A stretch of 64,000 nt of DNA from NCBI GenBank assembly GCA_039799225.1, contig JBDLTF010000005.1, forward strand, positions 2,884 through 66,883. Reading direction: 5' to 3'. The notes under the pieces are model-generated. The model was not told where the DNA came from. It searched no databases and saw nothing but the letters and a program-made list of their open reading frames with translations. Below are positions 831 to 57,545 of this stretch, piece by piece. The number at the start of each line of letters is the position of its first letter. Positions within the stretch are counted from its first letter, which is position 1. The translations under genes were made by a program, and so were the position numbers. Origin of the DNA: Candidatus Parcubacteria bacterium (GTDB taxonomy: Bacteria > Patescibacteriota > Minisyncoccia > Phycocordibacterales > PALSA-1337).

Positions 831-877
831 GAGGGTACGTCTCAACTTACCAGATTTGATAAAATCCACAGAACAGT

Positions 878-2686
878 ATGGATACTACTAATGATGCCAA
901 GCCCGAAGAGATTGAGAAAATAACGAAGGAGAATCTCTATACCGGATTCAAAGTTCTCGTTAAGTATCTCAGCCAATACAAGAAGACCATCGTCATGCTC
1001 AGCGTGATTGGTGTCCTTTCTGCTATCGGCAACGGTATCGTGCCCTATATAGCCGGCAAATTCTTCGACGCTATCCTCACACCTTCTTCGTTCAACCTTC
1101 TCGGCTATATTCTACCTCTCTATGTAGTTCTACTCATTCTGTGGGCAGTCGTTCAGTTCGTCACATACATCATGGATTGGCGCATCAATATCACCAGTGA
1201 ATATCTCTCCAACACTATCTGGCTCGACTATCTTTCGAAAGGTTTCGGATATCTCTTGAATCTTCCTATCTCTTTCCACAAGCAAAACAAGATGGGAGAG
1301 ATTACCAACAAGATCAATCAGGCTGCTGGATCGCTGGAAACAATCGCCGGACGCATAGTCATCGACCTAGCCCCACAGATCTTGAGCATCATCATCGCCC
1401 TGATGGTAGCCTTCTATCTCAAACCAATACTGGCATCATTCCTGCTCTTGAGTGTCATCGTGTATGTATTCGTCCTTCTCCACAAAGTGAAACCTCTATC
1501 CGCGGTTCAAAAGGCATACTACGACAAATTCGGCTATATATGGGGTGAATCATACGATGTCATCACCAATACCTTGGCCATCAAGCAAGCCACAGCTGAG
1601 AGGTACGAACAGGACAAGATGGATAGAACCATGAAGAGTGCTGTGCCTTTGTGGATGCAACTAACCAAGATCTGGGGAGCATTGAGTCTCTACCAGCGAC
1701 TCACTATCCTTGTCACACAGATACTCATTTTTTGTATCTCAGTCATCTATATCCATCAGGGAACAATGACTATCGGTGAACTCTTGGCTTTCAATGCTTA
1801 CGCAGCCATGATCTTCGGGCCATTCGTAACCATCACTCGACAGTGGCAAACTATCCAGAACGGCATCATCAACATCCAAGAGACAGAGAAGATCTTGCAA
1901 ACAGAACCAGAAGCTTATTCACCTACAGACTCAAAGCCATTCACTCTCAAAGGTGACATTGATTTCAAAGATGTATCATTCAGCTATGATGAGGGTAAGC
2001 CAGTCCTCTCGGATATATCATTCTCTATCAAAGCTGGCCAAATCATCGCACTGGTGGGCGAATCTGGCGTCGGTAAAAGTACACTCATAGACCTAGTATC
2101 GGGATACAATTTTTCAACGAAAGGAGAAGTGGCCATTGATGGTGTCCCTATGCACAAGATTGACCTCCGAAGCTTGCGCAGTCAGATTGGAGTGGTGCCA
2201 CAAGAAGTTGTGCTCTTCAACGACAGCATCAAGACCAATATCAAATACGGCAATTTCAGTGCCACTGATGCTGAGATTGAAGCAGCTTCACTCAAGGCAC
2301 ATGCACTCGATTTCATAAACAAATTCCCTGAAAAGTGGGCACAGGTCGTCGGCGAACGCGGAGTCAAACTATCAGTCGGACAGAAACAACGTGTCGCCAT
2401 TGCTCGCGCCATCCTGCGCAATCCGAAGATTCTCATCCTCGATGAGCCGACTTCTGCACTGGATGCCGGATCAGAAAGAATCATCACTCAGTCACTCGAT
2501 GAACTCATGAAAGGGAAGACTACCTTCATCATCGCTCACCGCCTCAGCACTGTCCGCCGCGCCGATAAAATTCTCGTCTTCAAAGAAGGAAAAATCATAG
2601 AATCAGGTACTCACAGTGAACTTCTCGCTATCGAGGGTGGAGAATACCGTCGCCTGCATGAACTCCAGATCGGTTTGCACGACTAG
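878..2686 (+). CDS. ABC exporter, fused permease + ATPase (MsbA/ABCB-like)
   Basis: N-terminal multi-TM domain. Walker A GESGVGKST, ABC signature LSVGQKQR, Walker B ILILDEPTSALD, H-loop IAHRLS. Confidence 0.85.
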   Translation: MDTTNDAKPEEIEKITKENLYTGFKVLVKYLSQYKKTIVMLSVIGVLSAIGNGIVPYIAGKFFDAILTPSSFNLLGYILPLYVVLLILWAVVQFVTYIMDWRINITSEYLSNTIWLDYLSKGFGYLLNLPISFHKQNKMGEITNKINQAAGSLETIAGRIVIDLAPQILSIIIALMVAFYLKPILASFLLLSVIVYVFVLLHKVKPLSAVQKAYYDKFGYIWGESYDVITNTLAIKQATAERYEQDKMDRTMKSAVPLWMQLTKIWGALSLYQRLTILVTQILIFCISVIYIHQGTMTIGELLAFNAYAAMIFGPFVTITRQWQTIQNGIINIQETEKILQTEPEAYSPTDSKPFTLKGDIDFKDVSFSYDEGKPVLSDISFSIKAGQIIALVGESGVGKSTLIDLVSGYNFSTKGEVAIDGVPMHKIDLRSLRSQIGVVPQEVVLFNDSIKTNIKYGNFSATDAEIEAASLKAHALDFINKFPEKWAQVVGERGVKLSVGQKQRVAIARAILRNPKILILDEPTSALDAGSERIITQSLDELMKGKTTFIIAHRLSTVRRADKILVFKEGKIIESGTHSELLAIEGGEYRRLHELQIGLHD

Positions 2687-8833: not shown

Positions 8834-10153
8834 CTAAAGGTACGACAATGGGTTCAAGTACGCATTGAGAGGCGCGTACGGGATCATAATTCCGGGACAT
8901 GATCTGCTGTTTGCAACTTGGAAGCCGTCGGTTGCATACACGCCAAAGTGGAGATGCGGACCGGTGGTGAAGCCTGTGTTGCCGCTGTAGCCGACGATTT
9001 GACCTCGAGCTATAGTATCGCCAATCTTAACGGTGTTGAGTGACATATGAGCGTATAAGGTCGTCAAACCATTTGGATGCTCGACGGATACCCAATTTCC
9101 GTATCCACACTTGATTCGAGATGCCGTAGCGAAGGTATGACTGACAACTCCACCCGCAGCAGATTTTATCGGCGTTCCAACAGAAGCTCTCAAATCAATT
9201 CCATTATGTTCGCCACTAGATCCTTTGTAGACTTGCGGATTTGCAGTCGAAAACGTCGTGTTTCCGAAATACTGCGTGATAGACGGTGCATCTATCGGCC
9301 ACGACAAAACTCCTGAACCAACTCGGGGGATACTCGAAGAATCAACAGAAGTAAGAGCTTGTTCAAGCAGTGCCACTTCCCTCTCAAATGATTCTTTCAA
9401 AGCCTGACGCTCCTTCAACACTCTCTGGTATTGTGACTCACTTTGCTTCGTTTCCTTGAGCAGATAATTTTGTTCAGCGACTGTTTCTAAAACAACTTTC
9501 TTCTGATCATTCAACTGCTTGCTCAACGTAACAAGTTCAGTCTTAGCCTTCTCGGTCGCTTTCTTATTGGTCTCAAGGTTGGTCTTGGCACTCTGAAGGC
9601 TGGCAATACGGTCTATAAGCGCATTCTGGACTGCAGCAATACTGTCCATCGAGTTCCATGCGGTTGAGAGTGATTTCTCGCCAAGAAGAAGCTCAGGCAA
9701 TGATTTGTCGCCTATTTCATTCACGCTCTGATATGAGCGCGTGATGATACGACGGTCTTCAGTAATAGTCTCTTCTTTGTCTGATATCTGCCCACCAAGC
9801 TGTTTGATGAGTAGATTCTTCTCGGCAATTTTATTCTCAGTGACTTTGATATCGGCCTCGAGCTTCTTCTGAGTAAGCTGAAGCGACTTGATGGTCGCAG
9901 ATAGTGACGAGACTTGCGTACCGATCTCATTGAGCTGTTTCTGATAACTGGCGATTTCTTTTTCAAGTGCCTGAATATCATTCGCGCGCTGATCTATCTT
10001 CGTTTGCAATTCATCAGCTGATTGTGCGAATACTGATGAGAAAAATACTGTGCACACACAGACGAGTACAAGAATAGAAATGAAAAAAGCGAAACGGTAG
10101 GGGACTCCCCTATTCTTGTTGCCCTGCGTAGTTGTGTTCGGAAGATGTCGCAT
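8834..10153 (-). CDS. M23 family metallopeptidase with N-terminal coiled coil (EnvC/NlpD-like)
   Basis: Signal/TM segment, long coiled-coil region, C-terminal LytM/M23 motifs GIDLRASVGTPI and GNTGFTTGPHLHF. Confidence 0.8.
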   Translation of the reverse strand: MRHLPNTTTQGNKNRGVPYRFAFFISILVLVCVCTVFFSSVFAQSADELQTKIDQRANDIQALEKEIASYQKQLNEIGTQVSSLSATIKSLQLTQKKLEADIKVTENKIAEKNLLIKQLGGQISDKEETITEDRRIITRSYQSVNEIGDKSLPELLLGEKSLSTAWNSMDSIAAVQNALIDRIASLQSAKTNLETNKKATEKAKTELVTLSKQLNDQKKVVLETVAEQNYLLKETKQSESQYQRVLKERQALKESFEREVALLEQALTSVDSSSIPRVGSGVLSWPIDAPSITQYFGNTTFSTANPQVYKGSSGEHNGIDLRASVGTPIKSAAGGVVSHTFATASRIKCGYGNWVSVEHPNGLTTLYAHMSLNTVKIGDTIARGQIVGYSGNTGFTTGPHLHFGVYATDGFQVANSRSCPGIMIPYAPLNAYLNPLSYL

Positions 10154-11758: not shown

Positions 11759-11826
11759 TGGACTCAAGGGGAATCGAACCCCTAAATCTATTTTGACAAG
11801 AATAGATTCGGAGCCATCCTGAGCCC
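11759..11826 (-). tRNA. tRNA-like element (perfect T-arm + acceptor; anticodon/D region non-canonical), possibly an unusual tRNA or a tRNA-derived fragment
   Basis: Minus-strand GGGCTCA...AGGGGTTCGATTCCCCTTGAGTCCA. Acceptor 7/7 paired with one G-U. Canonical T-loop TTCGATT. The middle folds as an 8-bp stem with an 8-nt loop (AATCTATT CTTGTCAA AATAGATT), not a standard anticodon arm. Total length is only 68 nt. Confidence 0.3.
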
Positions 11827-11848: not shown

Positions 11849-11900
11849 AAAATCATACACAATCAAAATGAAGGAATTGTGATGAAGTGATAGAGAAACT
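11849..11900 (-). promoter_or_regulatory. conserved upstream motif, copy 2 (minus strand GTTTCTCTATCACTTCATCACAATTCCTTCATT followed by TTGATTGTGTATGAT)
   Basis: Sits just upstream, in the sense orientation, of the tRNA-like element and the gltX leader. 23/27 identical to copy 1 over the core. Confidence 0.5.
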
Positions 11901-11908
11901 ATGATGAT

Positions 11909-25013: not shown

Positions 25014-25065
25014 ACTTTATCAAACCACTATGAAGGAACCGTGATGAAGTGGTAGAGAAACAATG
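25014..25065 (-). promoter_or_regulatory. conserved upstream motif, copy 3 (minus strand GTTTCTCTACCACTTCATCACGGTTCCTTCATA followed by TTTGATAAAGT)
   Basis: Immediately 5' of the pilB start. Same core as copies at 2699-2750 and 11849-11900. Confidence 0.5.
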
Positions 25066-25203
25066 ATGAACAGATTCTTATGATTTTATTTGCACTTTCC
25101 TTATAGATGTGTTATTATTCTCAGTCGCTGTTCTTTTGAAAACCATCCCATTCGGGAGACAAAAGGCGCATAAATACGGACTCAACTACTACTGAAGTTA
25201 CTC

Positions 25204-30064: not shown

Positions 30065-30856
30065 CTAGTTGAGGAATATCTTCGTCCTCTTGATCGACAG
30101 TGCAATCGCCCCAGCCCCAATATCCTTCCCTATCTGATGCGCTAAGGATCTCATGTAGGTGCCACTTGAGCACTTCACTCTGATCGTCACCACATCAAAT
30201 AGTTCCTCATTCGAAATTCCATCATCAAGCATGGCGCTCCAGTGACGTTTTATTTCCTCTTGTCTGAAATCACCTTTCACCAGGTCCACCTTGTCGAGTA
30301 TATGCGCTTCCAATTCAAAGCCTGAGATTCGTTCCCTCTTTAACTCCTCAATCTCATATATCTGAACTTCTTTGGTCGGCATTTCCTCCGGTAATTTGTC
30401 GGCGCGGGCCAATTCATGCAATGCGACGCCGTTGACAGTACGCGATGAGTATGGAGGATATTCCTGCGTGAATGTACCAATGTATTTATGTAGATCTAAA
30501 TCATCTATCGCTTCATTCGTACCAATATGCGCCGAGACCTTCACGGGATCAACAGGTTTCGAGGCGATTCCCAGTGCATCATAAGTATCCGTTTCTACGC
30601 CGAACACAACCTCGATTTCATATTCCTTATCAAGACCAAGATACTTGTCTTTGTTTTTACATTCATCGCCTATAAGTATAAGCAGCTCCCCTTCCGCCAA
30701 CGGATCGAGACGTCCTGCATAGGTCATAGGTGTGGTCTCCCATATCTTTTTTTTCTCAGCATCCGTGACCTTCTCTATCTGTGAACGACGAAACCGCTCG
30801 AGAGCTTCGAGCGGTGTTTCGCCCACGTTCTTCATGATTGAAGTAATATTTTGCAT
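30065..30856 (-). CDS. truB: tRNA pseudouridine(55) synthase
   Basis: AGRLDPLAEGELLILIGDECK, GLDKEYEIEVVFGVETDTYDALG and C-terminal CSSGTYMRSL are colinear with E. coli TruB. Confidence 0.75.
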   Translation of the reverse strand: MQNITSIMKNVGETPLEALERFRRSQIEKVTDAEKKKIWETTPMTYAGRLDPLAEGELLILIGDECKNKDKYLGLDKEYEIEVVFGVETDTYDALGIASKPVDPVKVSAHIGTNEAIDDLDLHKYIGTFTQEYPPYSSRTVNGVALHELARADKLPEEMPTKEVQIYEIEELKRERISGFELEAHILDKVDLVKGDFRQEEIKRHWSAMLDDGISNEELFDVVTIRVKCSSGTYMRSLAHQIGKDIGAGAIALSIKRTKIFLN

Positions 30857-32626: not shown

Positions 32627-32722
32627 CTTTTTGTACCAACGACGAAACCGCTCGAAACTCTCGAGCGGTTCATCGCCTATCTATTTATCGATAGTGTACA
32701 ATTTTTAAATTATTTCCACTGA

Positions 32723-35700
32723 CTATTCTTCAGACTCTCCTTCCTTAGGAGCGATTGCATCAATCATAATCTGCTTCGGTGATCCCTTGTATCCTGATCC
32801 TGCGGGGACGAGGCGACCGATGATGACGTTCTCCATGAGACCTGCGAGGTTGTCCTCTGCTCCGCGAACTGCGTTGCCGATGAGAACACGAGTTGTGTGC
32901 TGGAATGAGGCCGCTGAGAGGAAGCTCTTCCTTGAGAGCGAAGTCTCGGTGATACCCATAACAAGCTTCTCAACCTTTGCAGCAGATCCATCTGCAGCCT
33001 TAGCTGCGATGTTCTCTTCTGAGAGATAGGTATCATCAACGATCATACCTTCAGTAAGATTGGTGCTACCTGCATCCTTGACGCGGCGGCGGCTGAACAT
33101 CTGCTTCACGATGAGCTCAATGTGCTTGCGTGACACGGTTTCTCCCTGGAGCTCGTAAATCTTACCAACCTCGGTAATGACGTACTCCTTGGCACGCTCT
33201 TCACCACCAAATTCGAAGACCTCATCGATATCAGCTGATCCATCGGTAAGGAGGTCTCCCTTCTTAACCTTGTCACCAACCTTCACAAATGCGGTACGGC
33301 GATATGGGAAGACATACTCAACTTCTGATGTCTTGTTCTTACCCTTCTTAGCATCTTCAACTTCTGGGAGGATGCGGATAACCTTCTCCTTGCCGAGATC
33401 CTTGACCTCGCTGATCATGCCATCTACTGATGCCACGACTGCTGGGTTCCTTGGGCGGCGCTTCTCGAAGATTTCTTCGACACGTGGGAGACCTGCGGTG
33501 ATGTCTCCTGCTGCTGATGCGGCACCTCCCGCGTGGAAGGTACGCATAGTAAGCTGAGTTCCTGGCTCACCGATAGCTTGTGCGGCGACGGTACCGACTG
33601 CTTCGCCGAGATCGACGAGCTTGTTCTTACCAAGATCCATTCCGTAACACTGTGCACACACACCACGGATAGTCTTACATGAGAGTGGTGAACGGACATG
33701 AACCTGAGTGGTGCCAGCCTCTTCAACCTTCATCGCATCAGCCTTGCTGAGGAGATGATTCTTCGAGAAGAGGAGCTTACCATCCATACCCATGATATCC
33801 TCGGCGATCACGCGACCGCGAATGTTCTTGGAAAGTGGGATAGCCATACCTGATGCAGTCTGAGTGCGGATGATGATACTTTCCTTGGTGCCACAATCAT
33901 CCTCTGAGACAACGACATCCTGCGCAACGACGAAGAGCTTACGAGTGAGGTAACCTGCTTTCGCGGTGTTGAGCGCGGTGTCAGTAAGACCCTTACGTGA
34001 ACCGTGAGTGGTAATGAAGTACTCGATAGGAGTCAAACCTTCCTTAGCACATGAGAGAATTGGGAACTCAATAGTTTCTCCAGAGACCGATGCGATAAGA
34101 CCCTTCATACCTGCCATGATAGTGATCTGTGAGAGCGATCCGCGAGCGCCAGAGTTGACCATGTCGTAGACAGATCCATTCTTGTCGAGAGATGCTGGGA
34201 TAACCTTCTCAACTTCACTCTTGGCATGCTGCCAGATCTCGATGTGCTTCCTGATGCGCTCCTCTTCAGTAAGGAGACCTTCATCAAACTGCTCAGTAAC
34301 ACGATCTGCCTGCTCCTTGCCCTTGGCAATGATGGTGTACTTCTCTGGAGGAATAACGATATCGTCGATACCCCAAGTAGTTCCTGAGAATGTTGCGTAG
34401 CTAAATCCGAATGACTTGATGCGATCGAGAATCGGTGCGACGTCATTCACTCCGTGAAGAGTAATCATGTCGTCGATGATAGTAGCGATGCGCTTACGTC
34501 CGACCTCTTCGTTGATAAATGGATAGTCTTCCGGAAGAATATTGTTGAGGAGGATGCGACCAACAGTAGTCTCAACTAGTGTACCCTTCAAATTCGCATA
34601 CTTAGCGATGTCTGGTGCGAGAACCTTAACTGGCTCGCGGAGGTCAATGTCCTTGAAATTGTGAGCGAGCACTGCAGCCTCAGGAGATTCAAAGTACTTC
34701 ATTGAATTTGCCTTGGCACCTGCCTTCTCTACCTTCTTGGTAACCCAGAAACATCCGAGAACGATATCGAGGAGTTTAGCGACAACTGTAGGATCGTTGT
34801 TACCTGGCTTGAGAATGTTCTTGTCAGAAGCCATGATCTCACGAGCTTCCATCTGTGCCTCTTCTGAGAGTGGCACGTGGACAGCCATCTGGTCTCCGTC
34901 GAAGTCAGCGTTGAATGCGGTACAGACGAGTGGGTGAACCTGGATAGCGTTACCTTCGATAAGGATTGGGCGGAATGCCTGAATACCGAGGCGGTGAAGA
35001 GTAGGAGCGCGGTTCAAGAGCACATACTTGCCTTCAATGACCTCTTCGAGGATTTCCCACACTTCCTTGGCACCATCATCAATGAGACGATTTGCACCGC
35101 GGATATTGTAGGCGAGCTCCTTCTTGAGGAGTCCTGAAATAACGAATGGGCGGAAAAGTTCGAGAGCCATGTGCTTCGGAAGACCACACTGGTCAAGCCT
35201 GAGCTCTGGACCGACGACGATCACTGAACGACCTGAGTAGTCCACGCGCTTACCGAGGAGGTTCTGGCGGAAGAGACCACGCTTGGACTTGAGGCTATCA
35301 GAGAGAGACTTGAGCGCGCGCTTCTGAGCTGCAGCTGCTGCGGCTCCTGCTGATGAGCTGTGACGGATAGAGTTGTCGATAAGAGCATCAACTGCCTCCT
35401 GGAGAATACGCTTCTCGTTGCGGAGAATAACCTCTGGAGCATTGATCTCCTTGAGTTTCAAAAGACGATTGTTGCGGTTGATGACGCGGCGATAGAGGTC
35501 GTTAACATCAGAGGTTGCATAGCGACCACCATCAAGAGCGACCATAGGGCGGATGCCTGGTGGAATAACTGGAATACGAACGAGGAACATCCATTCTGGG
35601 CGGAGCTTAGCCTTGATCATCTGCTTAACGAGCGACAAGCGCTTGCCGAGCTTCTCACGATCTGCGGCACCTGCCTTCTCGAGATATCCTTCGAGCTCAA

Positions 35701-36409
35701 CCTTGAGCTTCGGAAGATCGATATGTTTCAAGAGATCGTAGATGACCTCTGCACCGATACCAGCCTCGAAGAGAGCACCGTATTTGACTGCGTACTTGTG
35801 ATACGTAGCCTCATCCATAACCATGCCGAGAGACAAACTCTCGATCTCGCGACGTGCGTTAACTACGAGCTCCTTAAGAGCCTCCTTGGTCTTATCATCC
35901 TGTGCAGTCTTGAGCTTGCTCTTGTATTCACCATCGAGCTCTTTGAGGAAAGATTCCTTCTCGTGCTCATTGACCTTGGTGACGATGTATCCAGCGAAAT
36001 AGACGACCTTCTCGAGATCCGAAGTGGTCATACCGAGAATGAGGCCGATGCGTGAAGGAACCGAACGGAGGAACCAGATATGAGAGACCGGAGACGCGAG
36101 CTCGATGTGACCCATGCGCTCGCGGCGAACTATAGAGCGAGTGATCTCGACTCCACACTTCTCACAGATGATTCCCTTATAACGGATACCGCGATACTTA
36201 CCACAGTAACACTCATAGTCACGATCTGGACCGAAGATACGCTCATCGAAGAGACCGCTCTTCTCAGAACGCTGGGTGCGGTAGTTGATGGTCTCCGGCT
36301 TAGTGATCTCGCCGTGTGACCATTCGAGGATTTTTTCCGGCGAAGCGAGTGAGAGCTTCACTGCATCGAAGTGGACTGGATCGAGAGTTTTTTTGGTGAT
36401 GGTTGTCAT
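32723..36409 (-). CDS. rpoC: DNA-directed RNA polymerase subunit beta'
   Basis: NADFDGDQMAVH catalytic motif, zinc-binding Cys cluster near the N-terminus. 1228 aa. Confidence 0.95.
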   Translation of the reverse strand: MTTITKKTLDPVHFDAVKLSLASPEKILEWSHGEITKPETINYRTQRSEKSGLFDERIFGPDRDYECYCGKYRGIRYKGIICEKCGVEITRSIVRRERMGHIELASPVSHIWFLRSVPSRIGLILGMTTSDLEKVVYFAGYIVTKVNEHEKESFLKELDGEYKSKLKTAQDDKTKEALKELVVNARREIESLSLGMVMDEATYHKYAVKYGALFEAGIGAEVIYDLLKHIDLPKLKVELEGYLEKAGAADREKLGKRLSLVKQMIKAKLRPEWMFLVRIPVIPPGIRPMVALDGGRYATSDVNDLYRRVINRNNRLLKLKEINAPEVILRNEKRILQEAVDALIDNSIRHSSSAGAAAAAAQKRALKSLSDSLKSKRGLFRQNLLGKRVDYSGRSVIVVGPELRLDQCGLPKHMALELFRPFVISGLLKKELAYNIRGANRLIDDGAKEVWEILEEVIEGKYVLLNRAPTLHRLGIQAFRPILIEGNAIQVHPLVCTAFNADFDGDQMAVHVPLSEEAQMEAREIMASDKNILKPGNNDPTVVAKLLDIVLGCFWVTKKVEKAGAKANSMKYFESPEAAVLAHNFKDIDLREPVKVLAPDIAKYANLKGTLVETTVGRILLNNILPEDYPFINEEVGRKRIATIIDDMITLHGVNDVAPILDRIKSFGFSYATFSGTTWGIDDIVIPPEKYTIIAKGKEQADRVTEQFDEGLLTEEERIRKHIEIWQHAKSEVEKVIPASLDKNGSVYDMVNSGARGSLSQITIMAGMKGLIASVSGETIEFPILSCAKEGLTPIEYFITTHGSRKGLTDTALNTAKAGYLTRKLFVVAQDVVVSEDDCGTKESIIIRTQTASGMAIPLSKNIRGRVIAEDIMGMDGKLLFSKNHLLSKADAMKVEEAGTTQVHVRSPLSCKTIRGVCAQCYGMDLGKNKLVDLGEAVGTVAAQAIGEPGTQLTMRTFHAGGAASAAGDITAGLPRVEEIFEKRRPRNPAVVASVDGMISEVKDLGKEKVIRILPEVEDAKKGKNKTSEVEYVFPYRRTAFVKVGDKVKKGDLLTDGSADIDEVFEFGGEERAKEYVITEVGKIYELQGETVSRKHIELIVKQMFSRRRVKDAGSTNLTEGMIVDDTYLSEENIAAKAADGSAAKVEKLVMGITETSLSRKSFLSAASFQHTTRVLIGNAVRGAEDNLAGLMENVIIGRLVPAGSGYKGSPKQIMIDAIAPKEGESEE

Positions 36410-36454: not shown

Positions 36455-39400
36455 TTATTCCTCGTCGACTCGAGGCTTGCTGGTAAGTTCGACGTTCAAT
36501 GCCAGACCGCGGAGCGTCTTGAGAAGCACATTGAATGATGCAGGAAGATTTGGAGCCTTTGGACGCTCACCCTTGACGATAGCATCGAAGGTCTGTGAAC
36601 GACCGACAATGTCGTCCGACTTGACCGTGAGGATTTCGCGGAGGGTATGAGCCGCACCGTGACCGAGCAATGCCCAGACCTCCATTTCTCCGAAGCGCTG
36701 ACCTCCACCCTGAGCCTTACCTCCGAGAGGCTGCTGCGTGATGAGAGAGTAAGGACCGATAGAACGCATGTGGATCTTGTCCTCAACCATGTGGTGCAAC
36801 TTGAGAATATACATGTATCCGACTGCGACTGGCTGTGCGAAGTGATCACCGGTGCGACCATCGCGGAGCTTCATTTTTCCTGAAGCATCGTAGCCTGCCT
36901 TCACAAGCTCTTCCTTGATTTCGGCTTCAGTAGCTCCTGCAAAAGGAGGAACGATAGCCTGATAACCAAGCTCGCTTGCTGCGAGTCCGAGGTGGAGCTC
37001 GAGAATCTGTCCGAGGTTCATACGTGATGGAACACCGAGAGGTGTGAGGATCACATCGATCGGGCGACCATCCTCCATGTATGGCATATCTTCCTCAGGA
37101 AGAATCCTTGAGATAACTCCTTTGTTACCGTGGCGTCCTGCCATCTTGTCTCCAACTGAAATATTACGAACCTGGGCGACCTCGATGTAGATCTTCTTGA
37201 TGATTCCTGACTCGAGCTTATCTCCCTTCTCGCGTGAGAATATCTTGACTGAAATAACGCGACCACGCTTACCGTTCTCCATGCGCTTGGAAGTATCCTT
37301 CACATCGCGAGCCTTCTCACCGAAGATAGAACGGAGGAGGCGCTCTTCTGGAGTAAGCTGTGTCTCACCCTTTGGTGAGATCTTACCGACGAGAATGTCG
37401 CCTGGGCGAACTTCTGCACCGATGCGGACGATACCCTCCTCAGTGAGGTTCTTGAGCTTAACTTCACCAACGTTTGGAATGTCACACGTAGTAACTTCAG
37501 GACCGAGCTTGGTGTCGCGCACGTTGACGACGAATTCCTCGATATGGATAGAGCTCCACTTGCTGTTCTTGACGACGCGCTCCGAAAGGATGATAGCGTC
37601 CTCGTAGTTGTTTCCAGACCATGACATGAAGGCGACGAGCGCGTTATGTCCGAGAGCGATCTGACCATTCTCTGAAGTTGAAGTATCAGCGAGCACATCT
37701 CCCTTCTTAACCTTATCGCCTGGTGAGACGATCGGGCGCTGATGGAAAGCGGTGAATCCGTTGGTACGAGAGAAGAGCACGAGTTTGTATTCATGCTTCT
37801 TACCCTTCTTGGAAACGAAGGTGATCTTCTTGGCATCTACGTGAGTGATCTCACCATCCTCAGGAGCGAGAATGAGACGACCTGTATCGATGACTGCCTT
37901 CTTCTCGATGCCGGTTGCGACGAATGGAGCCTCAGGAACGAGACATGGGGTTGCCTGCTTCTGCATGTTCGATCCCATGAGTGCGCGGTTTGCATCGTCA
38001 TGGTTCACGAATGGAATAAGTGAGGTTGCGATAGAGAAAGCCTGGTTGGTCGAAACGTCGATATAGTCGACATCCTTCTTGTGAGCCATAGCTGGCTTAC
38101 CGTTGATGCGGACTTCGATATCGTTGGCAGTAATCTCTCCCTTCTCATTGAATGCGGTTGCGGCGTGAGCAATACGGAAGTTCTCTTCCTCAAGAGCATT
38201 CATGTAGATGATCTCCTTGGTGATGACGCCATTCTTGACCTTAGCGTATGGAGTCTCGATCATGCCGAAATCATTGATGCGGGCATACATAGCGAGACGA
38301 AGCACGAGACCGATGTTCGGACCTTCAGGAGTGTGGATCGGACAGAGACGGCCGTAGTGAGATGGGTGAACGTCACGGACTTCGAAGCCGGCGCGCTCAC
38401 GTGAAAGACCACCAGGACCGAGGGCGGTGAGCTGGCGCAAGTTCTCGATTTCACCGAGAACGTTCTCCTGCTGCATGAACTGGGAGAGCTGGTTGGTAGT
38501 GAAGAATTCCTTGATACGTGCCTGGAGTGGACGTGGATAGATGAATGAGACAGGGAGAGTGACGTCTGGCTCGACAGTCGACATCTTGTCCTGGATATTA
38601 CGCTTCATCTGAGTAAGACCGAGACGGATACGCTGTTCGAGAAGCTCGCCAACGTAGCGAACACGGCGTGAACCGAGGTGGTCGATATCGTCAGGCTGAG
38701 TGTCTGGAGTAGTCGTAAGAGTAACGATGTGTGCGATTGTTGTCGCAATATCATCGATTGAGAGCGTGCGGCGCTCGAGCTCCTTCTCTTCCATAGACTT
38801 ACCGAAGCGCTTGTTGAAACGGAAACGACCAACACGAGAAAGGTCGTAACGATCTTCCTTGAGAAGTGTCTGAACGAAAGTACGTGCGTTCTCTGCAGTA
38901 GCGAGGTCACCATCGCGGAGACGCTTGTGGATCTCCATATATGCCTCATCCTTGGTCTTGGCATGATCCTTAGCAAGTGTCATCTCCAAAACCTTTACAG
39001 CCTCAGGATTTCCCTTGAAAAGCGCCATAATAGCCTCGTTGCTCTCTGCACCGAGGATGCGGAGGAGTGAGGTAACTGGGAACTTACGCTTGCGATCGAT
39101 ACGGCAGATGATCGATCCATCAGTGTCAGTCTCGATTTCCATCCATACACCGCGAGCTGGGATAACCTTTGCTCCGAAATAGTTCTTACCCTTCACCTCG
39201 TTGCCCGTGAAGAAGATACCAAATGAACGTGCGAGCTGAGGAGTGATGACACGCTCGACACCGTTGATGATGAATGTACCATGATCAGTCATGAGAGGAA
39301 GATCAGCGAGGAACATCTCCTGCTCTTTGACTACATTGAGAGACTTGTTCTTGAGAGTGACCTTGACCTTGATCTGACCCTCATAGTTGAGCTTGTTGTC

Positions 39401-39634
39401 CTTGGCATAGTGCTCGTTGAACTTCGGCTGCATGAGCTCAGGAGAGCCGATGGAGAGCTCAAACTTCTTACCGGCATAGTCGGTAATCGGTGAGAACTCG
39501 TCGAGAAGTCCCTTGATACCCTTCTCAATGAGCTGGGCAAAGGAGACGAGCTGGGATTCCACAAGGTGCGGCATCTCTGTGAGCGGGGCCTGGTAGCGGG
39601 AAAAGAATTTCTTCGGGCGGATGGTAGTGGTCAT
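36455..39634 (-). CDS. rpoB: DNA-directed RNA polymerase subunit beta
   Basis: 1059 aa with conserved beta-subunit blocks. Immediately upstream of rpoC. Confidence 0.95.
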   Translation of the reverse strand: MTTTIRPKKFFSRYQAPLTEMPHLVESQLVSFAQLIEKGIKGLLDEFSPITDYAGKKFELSIGSPELMQPKFNEHYAKDNKLNYEGQIKVKVTLKNKSLNVVKEQEMFLADLPLMTDHGTFIINGVERVITPQLARSFGIFFTGNEVKGKNYFGAKVIPARGVWMEIETDTDGSIICRIDRKRKFPVTSLLRILGAESNEAIMALFKGNPEAVKVLEMTLAKDHAKTKDEAYMEIHKRLRDGDLATAENARTFVQTLLKEDRYDLSRVGRFRFNKRFGKSMEEKELERRTLSIDDIATTIAHIVTLTTTPDTQPDDIDHLGSRRVRYVGELLEQRIRLGLTQMKRNIQDKMSTVEPDVTLPVSFIYPRPLQARIKEFFTTNQLSQFMQQENVLGEIENLRQLTALGPGGLSRERAGFEVRDVHPSHYGRLCPIHTPEGPNIGLVLRLAMYARINDFGMIETPYAKVKNGVITKEIIYMNALEEENFRIAHAATAFNEKGEITANDIEVRINGKPAMAHKKDVDYIDVSTNQAFSIATSLIPFVNHDDANRALMGSNMQKQATPCLVPEAPFVATGIEKKAVIDTGRLILAPEDGEITHVDAKKITFVSKKGKKHEYKLVLFSRTNGFTAFHQRPIVSPGDKVKKGDVLADTSTSENGQIALGHNALVAFMSWSGNNYEDAIILSERVVKNSKWSSIHIEEFVVNVRDTKLGPEVTTCDIPNVGEVKLKNLTEEGIVRIGAEVRPGDILVGKISPKGETQLTPEERLLRSIFGEKARDVKDTSKRMENGKRGRVISVKIFSREKGDKLESGIIKKIYIEVAQVRNISVGDKMAGRHGNKGVISRILPEEDMPYMEDGRPIDVILTPLGVPSRMNLGQILELHLGLAASELGYQAIVPPFAGATEAEIKEELVKAGYDASGKMKLRDGRTGDHFAQPVAVGYMYILKLHHMVEDKIHMRSIGPYSLITQQPLGGKAQGGGQRFGEMEVWALLGHGAAHTLREILTVKSDDIVGRSQTFDAIVKGERPKAPNLPASFNVLLKTLRGLALNVELTSKPRVDEE

Positions 39635-39860
39635 GTTTTTTGTAAATTATTAAATGCTGACGGGAACCGAACGACGACAAACACGCAAAAAGTCCGTTTG
39701 TGGATAAACGGGTATTGATTTCACTGCGGGGCTAGCGAGTGATAGACACGAGTAGGATTAATGATGGACCTTTCTAATCCTCCGCTAAAGCAGAACACAA
39801 TCTGCGAAGTTGTGTCTACCCTATCATATACATATAGAAAGTCAAGCGTTTTGAGGGCTG

Positions 39861-39910
39861 GGGATAACCCGAGGTGCATTACCTCGGAGCAATCCTCTGT
39901 GAGGATAACC
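39861..39910. repeat. structured 50-nt element, copy A: GGATAACC-hairpin1-GAGCA-hairpin2-GGATAACC
   Basis: GGATAACCCGAGGTGCATTACCTCGGAGCAATCCTCTGTGAGGATAACC. Copy B at 53953-54003 has compensatory changes that preserve hairpin 1. Confidence 0.6.
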
Positions 39911-40626
39911 TACTTCCCCTTCTTCTTACCCTGACCTTCGTCGGCCCGCCTTTCTAGGCGCCACTGATCCATCTTGGCATGATGACCGCTCAAGAGTACC
40001 TTGGGTACCCTATATTTCTTGCCTTTGTATTCGATAACTTCAGGGCGAGTATAGACATCTGGGCTGGCGATGCGTTCCTCTTCTATAGACTGAATATCAC
40101 CCAAAACCCCTGGAATACGACGAGTTATCGTATCTATCATGATCATAGCCGCCAATTCTCCTCCAGTAATGACATAGGGGCCAACTGAAACATCTACCAT
40201 AGGGAAAGCCTTCTTCACGCGAGCGTCGATACCTTCATAGCGACCACAGACGAAGACAATGTCAGTATATTTCTTGAATGTCTCAGCCATCTCATTGGTG
40301 AACTGCTTCCCTGCTGGACTGAAGAAAACGATCTTCACTTTTGCTTTGCCAGACTTGGTCTTCACCTTTTTTCCAATAGCGGATTCAACGGCTTTGATTA
40401 CCGGTAATGCCTCGATAACCATTCCCGGTCCTCCTCCATATGGTCTATCATCAACACGACGCTCTGCATAGGTCTGCTTCTTCTTATTTGCTGAAATAGT
40501 AAAGTCGCGTGGATTGTAGTATTTGAGAGCGATGAGACCCTTCTCCTGGGCACGCTTCAAGATAGAGGCGTTGAGGTACGACTCGGTACTTTCTGGAAAG
40601 AGAGTTATGAGGTGGTAGGTGGTCAT
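39910..40626 (-). CDS. trmD: tRNA (guanine37-N1)-methyltransferase
   Basis: MTTYHLITLFPE N-terminus, SPOUT fold motifs. Sits in the rpsP operon context. Confidence 0.9.
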   Translation of the reverse strand: MTTYHLITLFPESTESYLNASILKRAQEKGLIALKYYNPRDFTISANKKKQTYAERRVDDRPYGGGPGMVIEALPVIKAVESAIGKKVKTKSGKAKVKIVFFSPAGKQFTNEMAETFKKYTDIVFVCGRYEGIDARVKKAFPMVDVSVGPYVITGGELAAMIMIDTITRRIPGVLGDIQSIEEERIASPDVYTRPEVIEYKGKKYRVPKVLLSGHHAKMDQWRLERRADEGQGKKKGK

Positions 40627-45204: not shown

Positions 45205-45299
45205 GTAGATAAATAGAGGTTAAAAGAGATAATTACCCCATCATTTTATCGTATATTCAATTAATACACGATGGTGGCGTGTGGATAGCAGGTATGAAC

Positions 45300-48715: not shown

Positions 48716-48978
48716 GTGAGTTTTTGCTTGTTACTACTATTTCGCAGAAAGTCGACGCTTTTCTTTGCCTGCACATACTAGCACAGTATGGGGATAATAG
48801 ATAGCAAGGAGGGTCGGCCTGAGGGGAATCTCGCCTTACAGGCGCGGTACAGGCTTCACATTTTCTCGGAGCGAAGCTCCTCGAAAATATGTTCAGCCTC
48901 TTCGATTCCCCGAGGCGCTCGCGCGCAGGCGCGAGCTTGGTGCAATTAGATTATACTTACAAAAGTGAGACTACCGAG

Positions 48979-49050
48979 TAGCCCTACGGGGAATCGAACC
49001 CCGATTACTGCCTTGAGAAGGCAATGTCCTAACCGTTAGACGATAGGGCC
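48979..49050 (-). tRNA. tRNA-Glu (anticodon CUC)
   Basis: 72-nt cloverleaf GGCCCTA TC GTCT AACGGTTA GGAC A TTGCC TTCTCAA GGCAG TAAT CGGGG TTCGATT CCCCG TAGGGCT A. Anticodon loop TTCTCAA. Confidence 0.75.
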
Positions 49051-52498: not shown

Positions 52499-53395
52499 TT
52501 ATTTCTCTAATATCCTCAATTTTGCGCTTCTTGATCTTGGATTCTCTGCTCGTTCCTGATCGGAAGCGACTAGTGGTTTCTTCGTAAGTATCTTCGAACC
52601 GTATAATGCTTTCTTTTTATAAAAATCTTTGACTATGCGATCTTCGAGGCTGTGGAATGAGATGATTGCCATGCGTCCGCCTGTCGTGAGTGCTGTGTAT
52701 CCCTTGTCCAAACCTTCCTTGAGCGCATTAAGCTCATCGTTGACCGCTATGCGTAGTGCCTGGAATGTTCTCGTAGCCGGGTGTATCTTGCCTCTCTTAT
52801 AAAATCCCGGAACTGACGATGAAATGATCTCCGCAAGCTCGAGTGTCGTCTCTATCTGCTTCTTGGCTCGGTATCCGATGATTGCTCGAGCGATGCGTCG
52901 TGCAAACTTCTCTTCTCCGTATCCGAATATCACATCCGCGATAACTCCTTCTTCCCATTCATTGACGATTGTTCGTGCAGTGAACGGATATTTCTTCGGA
53001 TCACCCATAGTCATGAGGAGCGGCTCATCTTTCTGGAACGTGAATCCTCTGCCCGAGTTGTCCAACTCATCCGAAGATATCCCGAGATCAAGCAAGAAGA
53101 GGTCTATTCCCTCGATACTGTGCTTCTTGAGCACCTGATCGAGCATACGATAGTCCTGATTCTCGAGAATGACCTTGTCAGCCTTGCCCTGCAATGACTT
53201 CTCAGCTCTCTGTACCGCTTGAAGGTCTCTGTCGAGACCGATAACGGTCAGTTTGCCGCTGAAAGCCTTGGTCATGGCGAGCATATGTCCTGCTCCACCG
53301 AGGGTGCCGTCGAGATAGACGGGGTTGGATCGATTCGAAGCTTTGAATGCCTCTACGATCTCGTGTAAAAGAACGGGTTCATGGACTGTATCCAT
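52499..53395 (-). CDS. rsmH: 16S rRNA (cytosine1402-N4)-methyltransferase
   Basis: YLDGTLGGAGH SAM-binding motif. dcw position after mraZ. Confidence 0.9.
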   Translation of the reverse strand: MDTVHEPVLLHEIVEAFKASNRSNPVYLDGTLGGAGHMLAMTKAFSGKLTVIGLDRDLQAVQRAEKSLQGKADKVILENQDYRMLDQVLKKHSIEGIDLFLLDLGISSDELDNSGRGFTFQKDEPLLMTMGDPKKYPFTARTIVNEWEEGVIADVIFGYGEEKFARRIARAIIGYRAKKQIETTLELAEIISSSVPGFYKRGKIHPATRTFQALRIAVNDELNALKEGLDKGYTALTTGGRMAIISFHSLEDRIVKDFYKKKALYGSKILTKKPLVASDQERAENPRSRSAKLRILEK

Positions 53396-53397: not shown

Positions 53398-53838
53398 CTA
53401 TTTGGTTTCTGGTTTACCTAGGTTCTCGGCGAGCTCGTCTGCACGAGACTCAACTTCGTTCACATAGGCATCCCATGCAGCTTCATTCCACAACTCGACG
53501 CGATCTTTCACGCCGACGAAGACGACCGTGGATTCGAGGTTGGCGCGGTGGCGCAAGCGTTCGGGGAGAAGCATGCGACCCACTGCGTCAACCTCGACTT
53601 CAACCGCCCTGCCCAAGAGGTAGCGGTTGAAGCCGCGATTGTCCGCCTGCAACATCGAGGATTCAGACATCGACAAGCGACCCGAGACTTTTTCCCACTC
53701 GTCCACCGTAAAGATGAAGAGGCAGGAGTCCAAGCCTGGGGTCACCACCACTCGCTTCCCCATTTCCTTTCGGAATTTGGATGGAAGCGACAGGCGGTTC
53801 TTGTCGTCGATAGTGTGCCTGTATTCCCCGATGAGCAT
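53398..53838 (-). CDS. mraZ: transcriptional regulator MraZ
   Basis: MLIGEYRHTIDDKNRLSLPSKFR. Duplicated DXXXR motif. Confidence 0.9.
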   Translation of the reverse strand: MLIGEYRHTIDDKNRLSLPSKFRKEMGKRVVVTPGLDSCLFIFTVDEWEKVSGRLSMSESSMLQADNRGFNRYLLGRAVEVEVDAVGRMLLPERLRHRANLESTVVFVGVKDRVELWNEAAWDAYVNEVESRADELAENLGKPETK

Positions 53839-53925: not shown

Positions 53926-53952
53926 ATACAAATAAAAGATGTGGATAACCCG

Positions 53953-54003
53953 AGATGTACTATCTCGGAGCAATCCTCGGATGAGGATAACCCACGAACA
54001 AAT
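53953..54003. repeat. structured 50-nt element, copy B
   Basis: GGATAACCCGAGATGTACTATCTCGGAGCAATCCTCGGATGAGGATAACCC. Hairpin-1 stem CCGAGAT/ATCTCGG against CCGAGGT/ACCTCGG in copy A. Confidence 0.6.
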
Positions 54004-54007: not shown

Positions 54008-54032
54008 CAAAAAACCGCCCGGAAAGGCGGTT
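54008..54032 (-). terminator. rho-independent terminator for the gene at 54049-54438
   Basis: On minus: AACCGCCTTTCCGGGCGGTTTTTTG. Confidence 0.7.
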
Positions 54033-57265: not shown

Positions 57266-57271
57266 TATGTG

Positions 57272-57344
57272 TGGACCCGAGAGGAATTGAACCTCCGACC
57301 TTTGCTTTGCAAAAGCACTGCTCTACCAACTGAGCTACGGGCCC
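57272..57344 (-). tRNA. tRNA-Ala (anticodon UGC) with G3:U70 identity pair
   Basis: GGGCCCG TA GCTC AGTTGGTA GAGC A GTGCT TTTGCAA AGCAA AGGTC GGAGG TTCAATT CCTCT CGGGTCC A. Confidence 0.85.
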
Positions 57345-57545
57345 AAGTGAGGGACGAACGGACAAACTTGTTTGGACTTTCGGTCCGAACGCAGGGCCGG
57401 TATGAAATACGGGCCCAAGTGAGGGACTAAAGAACAAACTCGTTTGGACTTTTGGTCCGAACGCCGGGCCGGTATGAAATACGGGCCCAAGTGATGAACG
57501 AAAGATACTCTTACTTGGACTATTTTCGAACCCAAGTAATATACA
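57337..57545. repeat. tandem direct repeats of about 73 bp (two good copies plus one degenerate) in the 5' flank of tRNA-Ala, each starting with the first 9 nt of the tRNA
   Basis: ACGGGCCCAAGTGAGGGAC.AA.GAACAAAC.TGTTTGGACTTT.GGTCCGAACGC.GGGCCGGTATGAAAT, repeated from 57337 and from 57409. Third copy diverged. Confidence 0.7.

Follow-up and report, generated by a model that had tools for sequence, protein, structure and literature searches.

The closest described systems to the element reported here are the REP and BIME sequences of Enterobacteria and Pseudomonas, the BOX elements of pneumococci, the DnaA boxes found outside oriC and the attC sites of integrons. REP sequences, which are mobilised by RAYT (TnpA-REP), are short extragenic imperfect palindromes, single or clustered, in which a sequence-conserved base carries a distal stem that evolves by compensatory change, and copies within a genome are more alike than copies from different species. 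In E. coli the base of the consensus, GGAT..(distal stem)..TTATCC, resembles that of the present element. The pneumococcal BOX element (boxA-boxB(n)-boxC) contains tandem internal units of about 45 bp in varying number and has a stable predicted structure; it is often near promoters, affects neighbouring genes and has no known transposase. DnaA boxes outside oriC occur at regulated promoters, in clusters and in datA/DARS, and at DnaA-regulated genes they are placed just upstream of the promoter. The attC sites have conserved short ends and a variable palindromic centre conserved in structure, lie at gene boundaries in one orientation, and are recognised in folded single-stranded form.

The window, by which we mean the whole 64-kb stretch of DNA analysed, contains two copies of a short two-hairpin element, copy A (39862-39910) and copy B (53943-53992), for both of which the minus strand is the sense strand. 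The original prediction had read the shared two-hairpin plan from the sequence and had placed copy A correctly; its coordinates for copy B (53953-54003) are about 10 nt too high. Copy A reads GGATAACC-CCGAGGT-GCATT-ACCTCGG-AGCA-ATCCTC-TGT-GAGGAT-AACC, and copy B has the same layout. The features of the two sites are:

39857..39912, minus strand: copy A, full one-unit element (match to covariance model R1, 72.5 bits, E 5e-24)
39900..39908, minus strand: copy A distal (5') box TTATCCTCA, from sequence
39892..39906, minus strand: copy A hairpin 2, ATCCTC / GAGGAT with a 3-nt loop, from sequence and folding
39869..39887, minus strand: copy A hairpin 1, CCGAGGT / ACCTCGG with a 5-nt loop, from sequence, folding and covariation
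39859..39867, minus strand: copy A promoter-proximal box TTATCCCCA, 8/9 to the DnaA-box consensus
39910-40626, minus strand: trmD (Pfam)
39818..39845, minus strand: putative rpoB promoter TTGACT-N16-TAGGGT, conserved in L022, L024, L026, L029 and L030
36455-39634, minus strand: rpoB (Pfam)
53938..53994, minus strand: copy B, full one-unit element (match to covariance model R1, 79.2 bits, E 2e-26)
53982..53990, minus strand: copy B distal box TTATCCTCA, from sequence
53973..53988, minus strand: copy B hairpin 2, ATCCTC / GAGGAT with a 4-nt loop, from sequence and folding
53950..53968, minus strand: copy B hairpin 1, CCGAGAT / ATCTCGG with a 5-nt loop, from sequence and folding
53940..53948, minus strand: copy B promoter-proximal box TTATCCACA, 9/9 to the DnaA-box consensus
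54013..54032, minus strand: canonical intrinsic terminator of the upstream ORF (terminator scan)
53398-53838, minus strand: mraZ (Pfam)

In the sense direction, copy A runs from the distal box through hairpin 2, the linker and hairpin 1 to the promoter-proximal box. It starts at the trmD stop codon, the TAG of which overlaps GGTTATCC, and the ATCCTC of its distal box is the 5' arm of hairpin 2. Hairpin 1 is the lineage-variable palindrome, with CC at its start and GG at its end, and the promoter-proximal box is 13 nt upstream of the rpoB -35 element. Copy B lies between the terminator of an upstream 129-aa ORF and the mraZ promoter; its promoter-proximal box is 34 nt upstream of a TATAAT that is itself among the MraZ GTGGG repeats. 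Pfam also confirmed rpoC and rsmH, in agreement with the gene context first proposed, and the proposed position between the end of one transcription unit and the promoter of the next is supported as well. The consensus promoter scan left the rpoB promoter uncalled, with a -10 that matches at 3/6 positions, so we infer this promoter from its conservation. As predicted, neither hairpin is followed by a U-tract: the intrinsic-terminator scan called 54013-54032 and the rpoB-leader hairpin but neither element hairpin, the tails of which read GGTTATCC.

Copies A and B differ at one pair of the hairpin-1 stem, where the G:C of A is an A:T in B (G to A on one arm, C to T on the opposite one), and the loops have diverged with the stems intact; the compensatory change seen in the original prediction is therefore real. 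A 36-nt degenerate pattern fitting both copies had two matches, against 0.00 expected (100 shuffles), and a covariance model found A and B as the only full copies in the window. Both strands of the element fold better than shuffled sequences, with z scores of -2.3 to -3.9 as RNA and -3.3 to -3.7 as single-stranded DNA. Copy A is 100% identical in L036 (Logan SRR30127145), an independent assembly of the same strain, and is thus no assembly artefact.

Related units built to the same plan were found in at least eight other Paceibacterota contigs by metagenome and genome scans and by the covariance searches that had been proposed: L008, L016 (3 units), L017, L018, L019, L022, L027 (2) and L030. 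Copies A and B are members of a previously undescribed small DNA repeat of the Paceibacterota (CPR), and a literature search on the sequence, on CPR repeats and on CPR DnaA boxes found no description. Copy number and orientation in relatives were assessed over only about 330 kb of related sequence. The pattern used for scanning genome contigs fixed the outer pairs of hairpin 1 and consequently recovered only one relative (L008) among 13 chance matches; the scan of viral contigs for the unit gave no match.

Read in the sense direction, one unit consists of TTATCCTCA, 3-4 nt, GAGGAT, TGCTCC, a variable palindrome CC...GG, and G. Arrays contain 1-3 units and always finish, on the promoter side, with a box that has the DnaA-box consensus, TTATCC(A/C)CA. 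What lies directly upstream of that box is an accessory module of 41-46 bp, made of a second box copy (always the TCA variant), a GAGGAT that is the inverted box core and so gives hairpin 2, the fixed linker TGCTCC, and the free-sequence palindrome of hairpin 1. GCTCC and GGGTTATCC flank hairpin 1 in every unit, and between these fixed flanks it varies from 9 to 21 nt in length, with arms of 4-10 bp. Its sequences are unrelated between lineages and even within the L016 array; within genomes, A resembles B, L008 has two identical copies and L027 two related ones. A 25-nt unit core is identical in L016 unit 1, L018 and L019 and is one base off copy B, although MraZ of L018 has 62% identity to that of the window. 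The spacing from box to box is 34-46 bp and not in helical phase. Among the neighbours of the modules are trmD, rpoB, mraZ, ruvC and a PBP gene. Modules are present or absent at orthologous sites, may decay and can take either orientation; they are in the sense of the downstream gene at 8/9 module loci examined, the exception being L027 9890-9949. Copy A and those of L008, L017 and L022 directly follow a co-oriented stop codon.

The box, TTRTCC(A/C)CA, matches the universal DnaA-box consensus TTATCCACA and fits the 9-mer TTWTNCACA. The match is exact (9/9) in copy B, L017, L018, L019, L026, L027, L028 and L030 and 8/9 in copy A, L001 and L008, with the variants TTGTCCACA or TTGTCCCCA in L022, L027 and L030. 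Several promoter-proximal boxes have CCA at positions 7-9; the distal boxes always have TCA there and so deviate from the consensus at one position. We regard the box as probably a DnaA box solely on the strength of its identity to the canonical 9-mer. The original prediction had likened the flanking repeats to DnaA-box halves, and the likeness is borne out, but the promoter-proximal box is the full 9-mer rather than a half-site. It had also listed TGTGGATAA at 39699 and 53950. The first position is correct, and the second is in fact the box at 53940-53948. The 39699 occurrence was rejected as a part of the system: the rpoB leader has a conserved terminator hairpin, and this occurrence is its loop, which differs in L022, L024 and L026; L030 has it only because its rpoB leader is nearly identical.

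The box lies roughly 35-60 bp upstream of the transcription start at rpoB, mraZ, the gene following valS and the PBP gene, is oriented towards the gene at each of these housekeeping promoters, and is retained in relatives where the surrounding intergenic DNA has diverged past alignment. At the mraZ site it is in the same place in 6/6 loci compared, as part of a full module in the window and L018, beside a decayed module in L030, and alone in L001, L027 and L028. The decayed L030 orthologue of copy B retains the 5' arm of hairpin 1, CCGAGATA; the mraZ copy is old, being common to L030 and possibly L018. In L001 the MraZ protein is identical, but the upstream region has recombined and diverged, so that this locus shows a solitary box and not the precise empty-site junction looked for in a near-identical strain; L036, being of the same strain, has copy A. 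Between trmD and rpoB, 7/10 distinct loci have a co-oriented box, partly degenerate. Among the loci are the full module in the window, the box alone in the same place in L026 (GTTATCCACA) and L030 (CTTGTCCACA), and a degenerate box in L022, L024 and L029. L028, in which this region is divergent, has a reversed box, L031 has none, and L034 has at most a degenerate remnant. At the third site, downstream of valS, all six loci having that promoter have the box (alone in the window, L035, L028 and L030, within a module in L022 and L027). Conservation in alignment A5 is confined to two islands, the box and the promoter core. Two further boxes of the window are:

45280..45288, minus strand: solitary box CTATCCACA, between valS and the promoter that follows it, from sequence and locus comparison; at the orthologous site L022 has a full variant element and L027 a complex inverted pair
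48789..48797, minus strand: possible solitary box TTATCCCCA, intergenic, of uncertain membership, from sequence

Long perfect palindromes containing the box adjoin solitary boxes in L027 and L028, which speaks for DNA rather than RNA. Over 239 kb, the box family is 6.3 times denser in intergenic than in coding DNA (40 in 25.2 kb vs 54 in 213.8 kb), and 27/40 of the intergenic matches are aimed at a co-oriented gene. Solitary boxes are conserved in sequence and in distance from the promoter core and their flanks are not, which argues for selection on the box itself. By these comparisons the conserved, selected part is the box, and the two-hairpin module is accessory, being gained, lost and tandemly multiplied. 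Of the conservation upstream of rpoB and mraZ that the original prediction had proposed to check, the box shows it, being mostly kept, and the two-hairpin module does not.

Several simpler assignments were rejected. An origin of replication was discarded, since gene scans of the 64 kb found no dnaA and there is no GC-skew switch in the window. The box is not a general promoter element, being found in only 2-4 of the approximately 30 intergenic regions of the window. It is not an MraZ operator either: it lies on the strand opposite the GTGGG repeats, shows no 3-fold periodicity like theirs, and is present at genes other than mraZ, rpoB among them. A sigma-54 promoter with TTGCT as its -12 element would need a GG at -24, which is absent.

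Pairing is maintained throughout the family. In alignment A2, 95% of cells pair (34-50% in slid controls) and 7/15 pairs show double-sided changes, a result reached by 0/500 shuffles. Alignment A3, which was fitted to the model and takes in one spurious antisense row, has 94% of cells paired and double-sided changes at 10/14 pairs; 24 cells are altered on both sides and none on one side, with no G-U intermediates. Hairpin 1 retains pairing between lineages with wholly different sequence. Hairpin 2 changes together with the two boxes, the succession of box, middle arm and box being TTGTCC / GAGGAC / TTGTCC in L022 (hairpin 2 GTCCTC/GAGGAC) and TTATAC / GAGTAT / TTATAC in L027 (hairpin 2 ATACTC/GAGTAT). 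In the L027 genome, the hairpin-2 variants ATCCTC, GTCCTC and ATACTC coexist, each with its matched partner. Selection on pairing, which the original prediction had proposed from two copies, is supported by 9-13 related units, with double-sided changes at 6 of the 8-9 modelled pairs of hairpin 1; the random substitutions in other copies that would have spoken against it were not what the related units had. The 6-9 bp stems are short for cruciform extrusion in vivo.

Like REP and BIME sequences, the element is an imperfect extragenic palindrome with compensatory stem evolution, a sequence-conserved base, single or clustered occurrence and copies more alike within than between genomes. The GTAG (CTAC) found at the foot of REP palindromes is absent, and the unit has the flanks GCTCC and GGGTTATCC instead. 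It also differs from REP and BIME in its low copy number (two per 64 kb here, tens to hundreds per genome for REP), in the direct rather than alternating orientation of its units, in being always joined to a promoter-upstream box that also stands alone, in its CPR lineage, and in that no RAYT gene was seen. The scattered REP-like repeat that the original prediction had named as evidence against itself does not describe what we found, which is two full copies per 64 kb, always beside a box. With the pneumococcal BOX element it shares a modular intergenic design of variable tandem units, predicted structure and proximity to promoters. There is no sequence similarity between the two, the units here are bounded by a 9-bp box matching a known protein-binding consensus, and one hairpin has a stem that is free to vary. 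Its promoter-proximal box is identical to the canonical 9-mer of DnaA boxes (TTATCCACA, or TTGTCCACA as in high-GC bacteria) and is similarly placed just upstream of promoters. In contrast to DnaA boxes outside oriC, the distal boxes mismatch the consensus at position 7 and the window is no origin; we know of no DnaA-box cluster made of hairpin-containing repeat units or with gain and loss of units. The likeness to attC sites lies in the conserved short ends, the variable palindromic centre conserved in structure, the position at gene boundaries and the single orientation. An attC assignment was rejected, as the ends fail RYYYAAC / GTTRRRY (GTTATCC misfits the RRR positions); the flanking genes are syntenic core housekeeping genes rather than cassettes, and no integrase was seen.

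We tentatively prefer, as the best explanation though one that falls short of being probable, a DNA-level modular repeat of the REP/BOX kind, organised around a conserved box for protein binding that lies near -50 of promoters and is probably a DnaA box. The unit could instead be a selfish, non-autonomous mobile element of MITE or REP type that uses an unseen transposase or recombinase, targets GTTATCC and has no regulatory role, the boxes being target duplications or element ends and the solitary boxes empty targets or excision scars. Its presence and absence at three orthologous sites would fit such an element, as would tandem arrays, expected if insertion repeats into a regenerated target, flanking boxes that are always both of the local variant (L022, L027), the hairpin 1 common to copies within a genome, the inverted copy in L027, and a unit core nearly identical across genomes at 62% MraZ identity, as horizontal spread would give. 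The ends are direct and not inverted repeats, however, and the boxes differ systematically (TCA vs ACA/CCA; T vs A/C at position 7), so that no simple target-site duplication is involved; a MITE derived from a DDE transposase was rejected on these grounds. Pfam scans and gene lists showed no transposase in the window or in the approximately 330 kb of related loci. Together with the age of the mraZ copy and the conservation of solitary boxes against diverged flanks, this makes a purely selfish element rather unlikely. A cis-acting structured RNA is less likely than a DNA-level repeat, and we consider it unlikely. As such it would belong either to the 3' UTR of the upstream gene (as a terminator without a U-tract, a processing site, or a stabiliser of the 3' end comparable to REP RNA) or to a small RNA whose protein partner reads hairpin 2 and the linker. 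The strong covariation in both helices would agree with this, and conserved flanks around a structure-only stem are typical of protein-bound RNA motifs; 8/9 module loci are oriented with the flanking genes, four copies directly follow a stop codon, and hairpin 2 can be extended by G-U pairs on the sense strand only. Yet copy B and the L030 copy are both downstream of a canonical terminator, and little read-through transcription should reach copy B past 54013..54032. The L016 array, which lies between divergent genes, has no co-oriented upstream gene; L027 9890-9949 is inverted between two plus-strand genes, antisense to both. The hairpins lack a U-tract, both strands fold equally, the stems changed without G-U intermediates, and solitary-box sites are without any hairpin, so that hairpins are dispensable there. 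A known RNA family was rejected: Rfam at gathering score found only 3 tRNAs in the whole window, and permissive scans (E below 10) of 39620-39930 and of the L016 array gave no relevant match. Of the two options first offered, an RNA motif or a protein site, the former is thus the weaker.

The hairpins could also be dyad sites for dimeric transcription factors in a composite double-stranded operator that never folds. The promoter-proximal position would suit an operator, and the 6+6 dyad of hairpin 2, with its spacer of 3-4 bp, resembles many HTH operators. Hairpin 1, however, is unrelated in sequence and length from copy to copy, so no single protein could read it as duplex; the spacing of the conserved flanks varies over the same 9-21 bp, and the matched hairpin-2 variants coexisting in L027 fit pairing and not half-site recognition. 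We regard this as very improbable. A miniature guide-RNA array of CRISPR or TIGR type, with 25-nt repeats and short variable spacers, is effectively refuted. L016 is formally such an array (a 25-nt repeat, a variable 9-21 nt, a repeat and a degenerate terminal repeat), and CPR bacteria do have TIGR stem-loop arrays in which the palindromes vary (PMC12045711). Nevertheless, the supposed spacers are only 9-21 nt and self-complementary, where CRISPR spacers are non-palindromic and about 25-50 nt, no cas domain or Nop-domain Tas gene is in the window or beside any copy, and single units stand at many housekeeping promoters; by the published definition of TIGR-Tas arrays (PMC12045711), no box C (RUGAUGA) or box D (CUGA), and no UGAUGA/CUGA pair, is present in either strand of any unit.

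If the modular DNA repeat that we prefer is correct, the module would work or propagate as DNA rather than RNA. As hairpin 1 varies between fixed flanks, these flanks could be read together only when the hairpin is extruded, which would bring GGAT..TGCT beside GTT..ATCC. This might happen while the lagging-strand template is transiently single-stranded, or the hairpin might form as a cruciform where the DNA upstream of an active promoter is negatively supercoiled. Box and linker would be recognised by a sequence-specific protein, DnaA being the obvious candidate for the box, and arrays may grow by tandem duplication, as seen in L008. The net effect would be that a box-regulated promoter gains foldable DNA and additional box copies of low affinity on its upstream side. 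Some observations weigh against this explanation: the mismatch in the distal boxes, a box spacing out of helical phase, stems short for cruciform extrusion, and gene scans that brought up no protein binding or mobilising the element and, in the window, no gene for DnaA, a transposase or a recombinase.

A more specific possibility, drawn by analogy and distinctly improbable, is that the modules are functional DnaA-box hairpins, acting either as helicase-loading or restart sites like that of the ABC primosome or in DnaA titration, at the promoters of growth genes (rpoBC and the dcw cluster). At the A-site of the ABC primosome, DnaA on a box-containing hairpin loads DnaB (PMC6127211), and hairpin 2 would likewise make the distal box partly double-stranded within a single-stranded hairpin. 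Most modules follow the direction of local transcription, and probably of replication, which would place them on the lagging-strand template; hairpin 2 would then fold the distal box into a partly duplex DnaA site beside a clamp hairpin.

To our knowledge, almost nothing is known of cis-regulation or repeat elements in the CPR/Patescibacteria, whose members cannot be grown alone. For annotating promoters and typing strains in Paceibacterota MAGs, the covariance model and the box can serve as markers, and a repeat family with fixed flanks and a free-sequence stem is a natural experiment on hairpin recognition. If it is merely a selfish repeat, it is still the first REP/BOX-like family described in the group, with modest general consequence. 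The rpoBC operon and the mraZ (division and cell-wall) operon both have, upstream of the promoter, a conserved motif identical to the DnaA box, and this offers a directly testable hypothesis for the coupling of replication to growth genes in a minimal genome. If the reading as DnaA-box hairpins were true, replication status would be linked to transcription and division in a CPR lineage with very few regulators.

The window belongs to a Candidatus Paceibacterota (CPR) genome; its RpoB shares 84-94% identity with proteins that carry the names Paceibacterota, Parcubacteria or Taylorbacteria. Almost all of the genes around the element are on the minus strand, which is also its sense strand (genes assigned by Pfam):

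39910-40626, minus strand, trmD
39862-39910, sense minus, copy A
36455-39634, minus strand, rpoB
32723-36409, minus strand, rpoC
53943-53992, sense minus, copy B
53398-53838, minus strand, mraZ
52499-53395, minus strand, rsmH

Both copies follow the plan GGATAACC-[CCGAGRT-loop-AYCTCGG]-AGCA-[ATCCTC-loop-GAGGAT]-AACC, and a degenerate 36-mer spanning them gives 2 matches against 0 expected. They fold better than shuffles on both strands, as RNA and as single-stranded DNA, and an independent Logan assembly contains copy A without any difference (L036; L numbers denote contigs and loci of related genomes and metagenomes). The two copies of the original prediction are confirmed, with copy A at its predicted position; copy B exists on the predicted plan, with its true position about 10 nt lower. 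The single compensatory pair said to separate A from B, G:C to A:T, is present in the sequence.

Ahead of rpoB, at 39635-39817 on the minus strand of the window and likewise in L022, L024, L026, L028-L031 and L034, lies a conserved 5' leader, some 180-230 nt long, which contains in order the hairpin AGACACAACTTCGCAGATTGTGTTCTGC, GCGGAGGATTAGAAAGGTCCATCATTAATCCTAC, GTGTCTATCAC and a last, terminator-like CCGTTT-loop-AAACGGACTTTTTGCGTG. This candidate attenuator or leader RNA has no Rfam match. The rpoB/rpoC distance is 45 nt in the window, and the gap holds 1-3 extra ORFs with no Pfam domains in relatives (L022 13204-13698, L026 13201-13812, L034 13142-15691).

Collection scans and covariance-model searches gathered family members from one Paceibacterota MAG (L008), four metagenome contigs (L016-L019) and loci surrounding homologues of RpoB and ValS (L022, L027, L030). 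In the sense direction the unit reads GTTATCCTCA, YRC, GAGGATTGCTCC, a palindrome and GG, and the array terminus is GTTATCC(A/C)CA. Arrays have one unit in window copies A and B, L017, L018, L019 and L022; L008 shows tandem growth, with two hairpin-1 copies, and L016 has three units. Hairpin 1 begins with CC and ends with GG in every case, the rest being unrelated between lineages (for example CCGAGGT, CCCTGATGG, CCGTATCC, CCTTGATGG and CCGC); its arms are 4-10 bp and its length is 9-21 nt between fixed flanks. Within a genome hairpin 1 is shared, as in window copies A and B, two L027 copies and two identical L008 copies, the last a recent tandem duplication. The family is real, conserved and without earlier description; literature searches turned up neither an account of the element nor one of DnaA-box motifs at the promoters of CPR bacteria, and no Rfam family matches it.

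Other repeats occur as well. In L019, 2-3 tandem hairpin units of ~45 nt (CATACAAGAGCTACCCTTGTACCAGCCTCGCATGTTTCGATT; about 815-940, minus strand) lie directly upstream of the element. In the window, a 47-nt sequence recurs at 85% identity in two intergenic stretches (11861-11907 and 25023-25069), one copy being directly upstream of a T2SSE/PilB-like gene start at 25013, and a tRNA-Glu-like fragment lies at 11768-11800. At 57331-57502 a 72-nt unit stands 2.5 times in tandem, its copies sharing 86-89% identity; each opens with the 14 nt found at the 5' end of tRNA-Ala (57271-57344, minus strand), so the tRNA 5' end and upstream region are repeated upstream of the gene. Two hairpins that are 83% identical, AACGACGAAACCGCTCGAG..CTCGAGCGGT (30784-30823 and 32638-32677), lie one in the rpoC/ABC transporter gap and the other within the 3' end of a truB-like ORF, adjoining the ABC transporter stop codon.

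The pairing constraint proposed from two copies extends across relatives. In nine hand-checked units, 95% of cells are paired and 7 of 15 pairs have changed on both sides, a result reached by no shuffle (slid controls were 34-50% paired). Thirteen model-aligned rows, which were fitted to the model and include one spurious antisense row, show both-sided change at 10 of 14 pairs; 24 changes are double-sided and none is single-sided. Hairpin 2 and both boxes change together in L022 (TTGTCC / GAGGAC / TTGTCC) and L027 (TTATAC / GAGTAT / TTATAC). Given this co-variation and the both-sided changes in hairpin 1, the constraint is real.

In relatives with the synteny mraZ ... valS ... trmD-rpoB kept, a solitary box occurs exactly where the window's element ends, and the orthologous sites display gain and loss of the module:

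Upstream of mraZ: full module in the window and L018; in L030 (MraZ 95% identical) an orthologous module that has decayed, with the hairpin-1 5' arm CCGAGATA kept and the 3' arm partly deleted; box alone in L001 (GTTATCCCCA) and in L027 and L028 (CTTATCCACA)
trmD/rpoB gap: full module in the window; box alone in L026 (GTTATCCACA, 12 nt ahead of the conserved rpoB -35 TTGACT) and L030 (CTTGTCCACA); degenerate box in L022, L024 and L029; TGTGGATAA in reverse in L028, where the region is divergent; at most a degenerate remnant in L034 (ATACCCCAT); no box in L031
Downstream of valS: box alone in the window (CTATCCACA, 45280-45288), L035, L028 and L030; full variant module in L022; inverted pair, a 27-bp perfect palindrome, in L027

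When the region after valS is aligned, conservation forms islands only at the box and at the promoter core (TAAAAT..GGGGTA). The conserved part of the element is the box. Phage-type genes with KilA-N and Bro-N domains have inserted within or beside the dcw (mraZ) cluster of relatives (L027 7299-8147, L018 7314-7670). In the window, the tRNA-Glu/solitary box gap contains a strongly folding stretch (48800-48950, minus strand; -73.5 kcal/mol for the 199 nt of 48782-48980) that stays without an Rfam match when E is allowed up to 1 and could represent a small RNA missing from the annotation.

Intergenic DNA carries the box family at 6.3 times the density of coding DNA (239 kb, window and relatives), and 27 of 40 intergenic matches face a co-oriented gene, usually at a distance of 70-110 nt. 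In all three window promoters, inferred from conservation because a consensus scan calls none, the box as read from the sequences is about 34-38 nt upstream of a -10-like motif, which centres it near -50. The promoter-proximal consensus is TTATCCACA, in sequence the canonical 9-mer DnaA box, and the earlier DnaA hint was stronger than thought; the variant TTGTCCACA is the form familiar from high-GC bacteria. The box resembles non-origin DnaA boxes. The window as an origin is ruled out, having no dnaA gene and a mostly negative GC skew with no sustained switch.

The original prediction offered an RNA motif or a palindromic protein site; the structure stands, with RNA the weaker option. A structured RNA within 3' UTRs would suit the G-U pairs that can lengthen hairpin 2 on the sense strand and the module's orientation, which is that of the downstream gene in 8 of 9 loci examined but is confounded with box orientation towards its promoter. 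However, a canonical terminator of the preceding gene stands ahead of both copy B and its L030 orthologue, the L016 array is between divergent genes, one DsbA-like (Pfam), and the exceptional L027 unit (9890-9949) runs antisense to the genes on either side. Such contexts are difficult to square with RNA. The terminator scan found no U tail after the element's hairpins, as predicted, the thirteen rows contain no G-U intermediates, and single-stranded DNA folds equally on both strands. We consider a structured RNA unlikely. Two perfect palindromes, each with a box and its inverted copy inside, lie directly upstream of solitary promoter-proximal boxes:

L028 2081-2190, 33-bp arms
L027 12457-12526, 27-bp arms

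They suggest a palindrome-forming or palindrome-correcting process at the DNA level. A duplex operator is very improbable. Given the variable length of hairpin 1, its flanks are jointly readable only with the hairpin extruded, when the predicted fold juxtaposes GGAT/TGCT//GTT/ATCC at the base.

That the element is mobile and purely selfish, the box serving as target, seems rather unlikely. The module is long-lived: copy B is common to L030, and L018 has the mraZ module despite only 62% MraZ identity to the window. A 25-nt core identical in L016 unit 1, L018 and L019, and one base off copy B, points to strong constraint or else to horizontal spread. The window and the surroundings of every copy contain no transposase, recombinase, cas or Tas gene (Pfam, locus gene lists). 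A guide-RNA array is hardly credible. The element fails the defining features of CRISPR and attC, and lacks the box C/D and Tas that define TIGR arrays (PMC12045711). A classical MITE with target-site duplication does not fit: terminal inverted repeats are absent, and the two boxes show a systematic difference (TCA in one, ACA/CCA in the other). REP/BIME and pneumococcal BOX elements are closest in working, although the GTAG head of REP is absent. The ABC primosome A-site, with a functional DnaA box within a single-stranded hairpin (PMC6127211), is a precedent for a similar box here; the reading built on it, in which the modules would be functional DnaA-box hairpins, is quite unlikely.

Our tentative preference, at somewhat less than even chances, is for a modular DNA repeat of REP/BOX-like type. 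At its base would be a conserved box bound by a protein, probably a DnaA box, which lies at about -50 in several housekeeping promoters. The module would multiply the box upstream of the promoter and add hairpin-forming DNA maintained as a palindrome. The hairpins may act in single-stranded or cruciform DNA, DnaA may read the box, and the additional boxes would tune the promoter.
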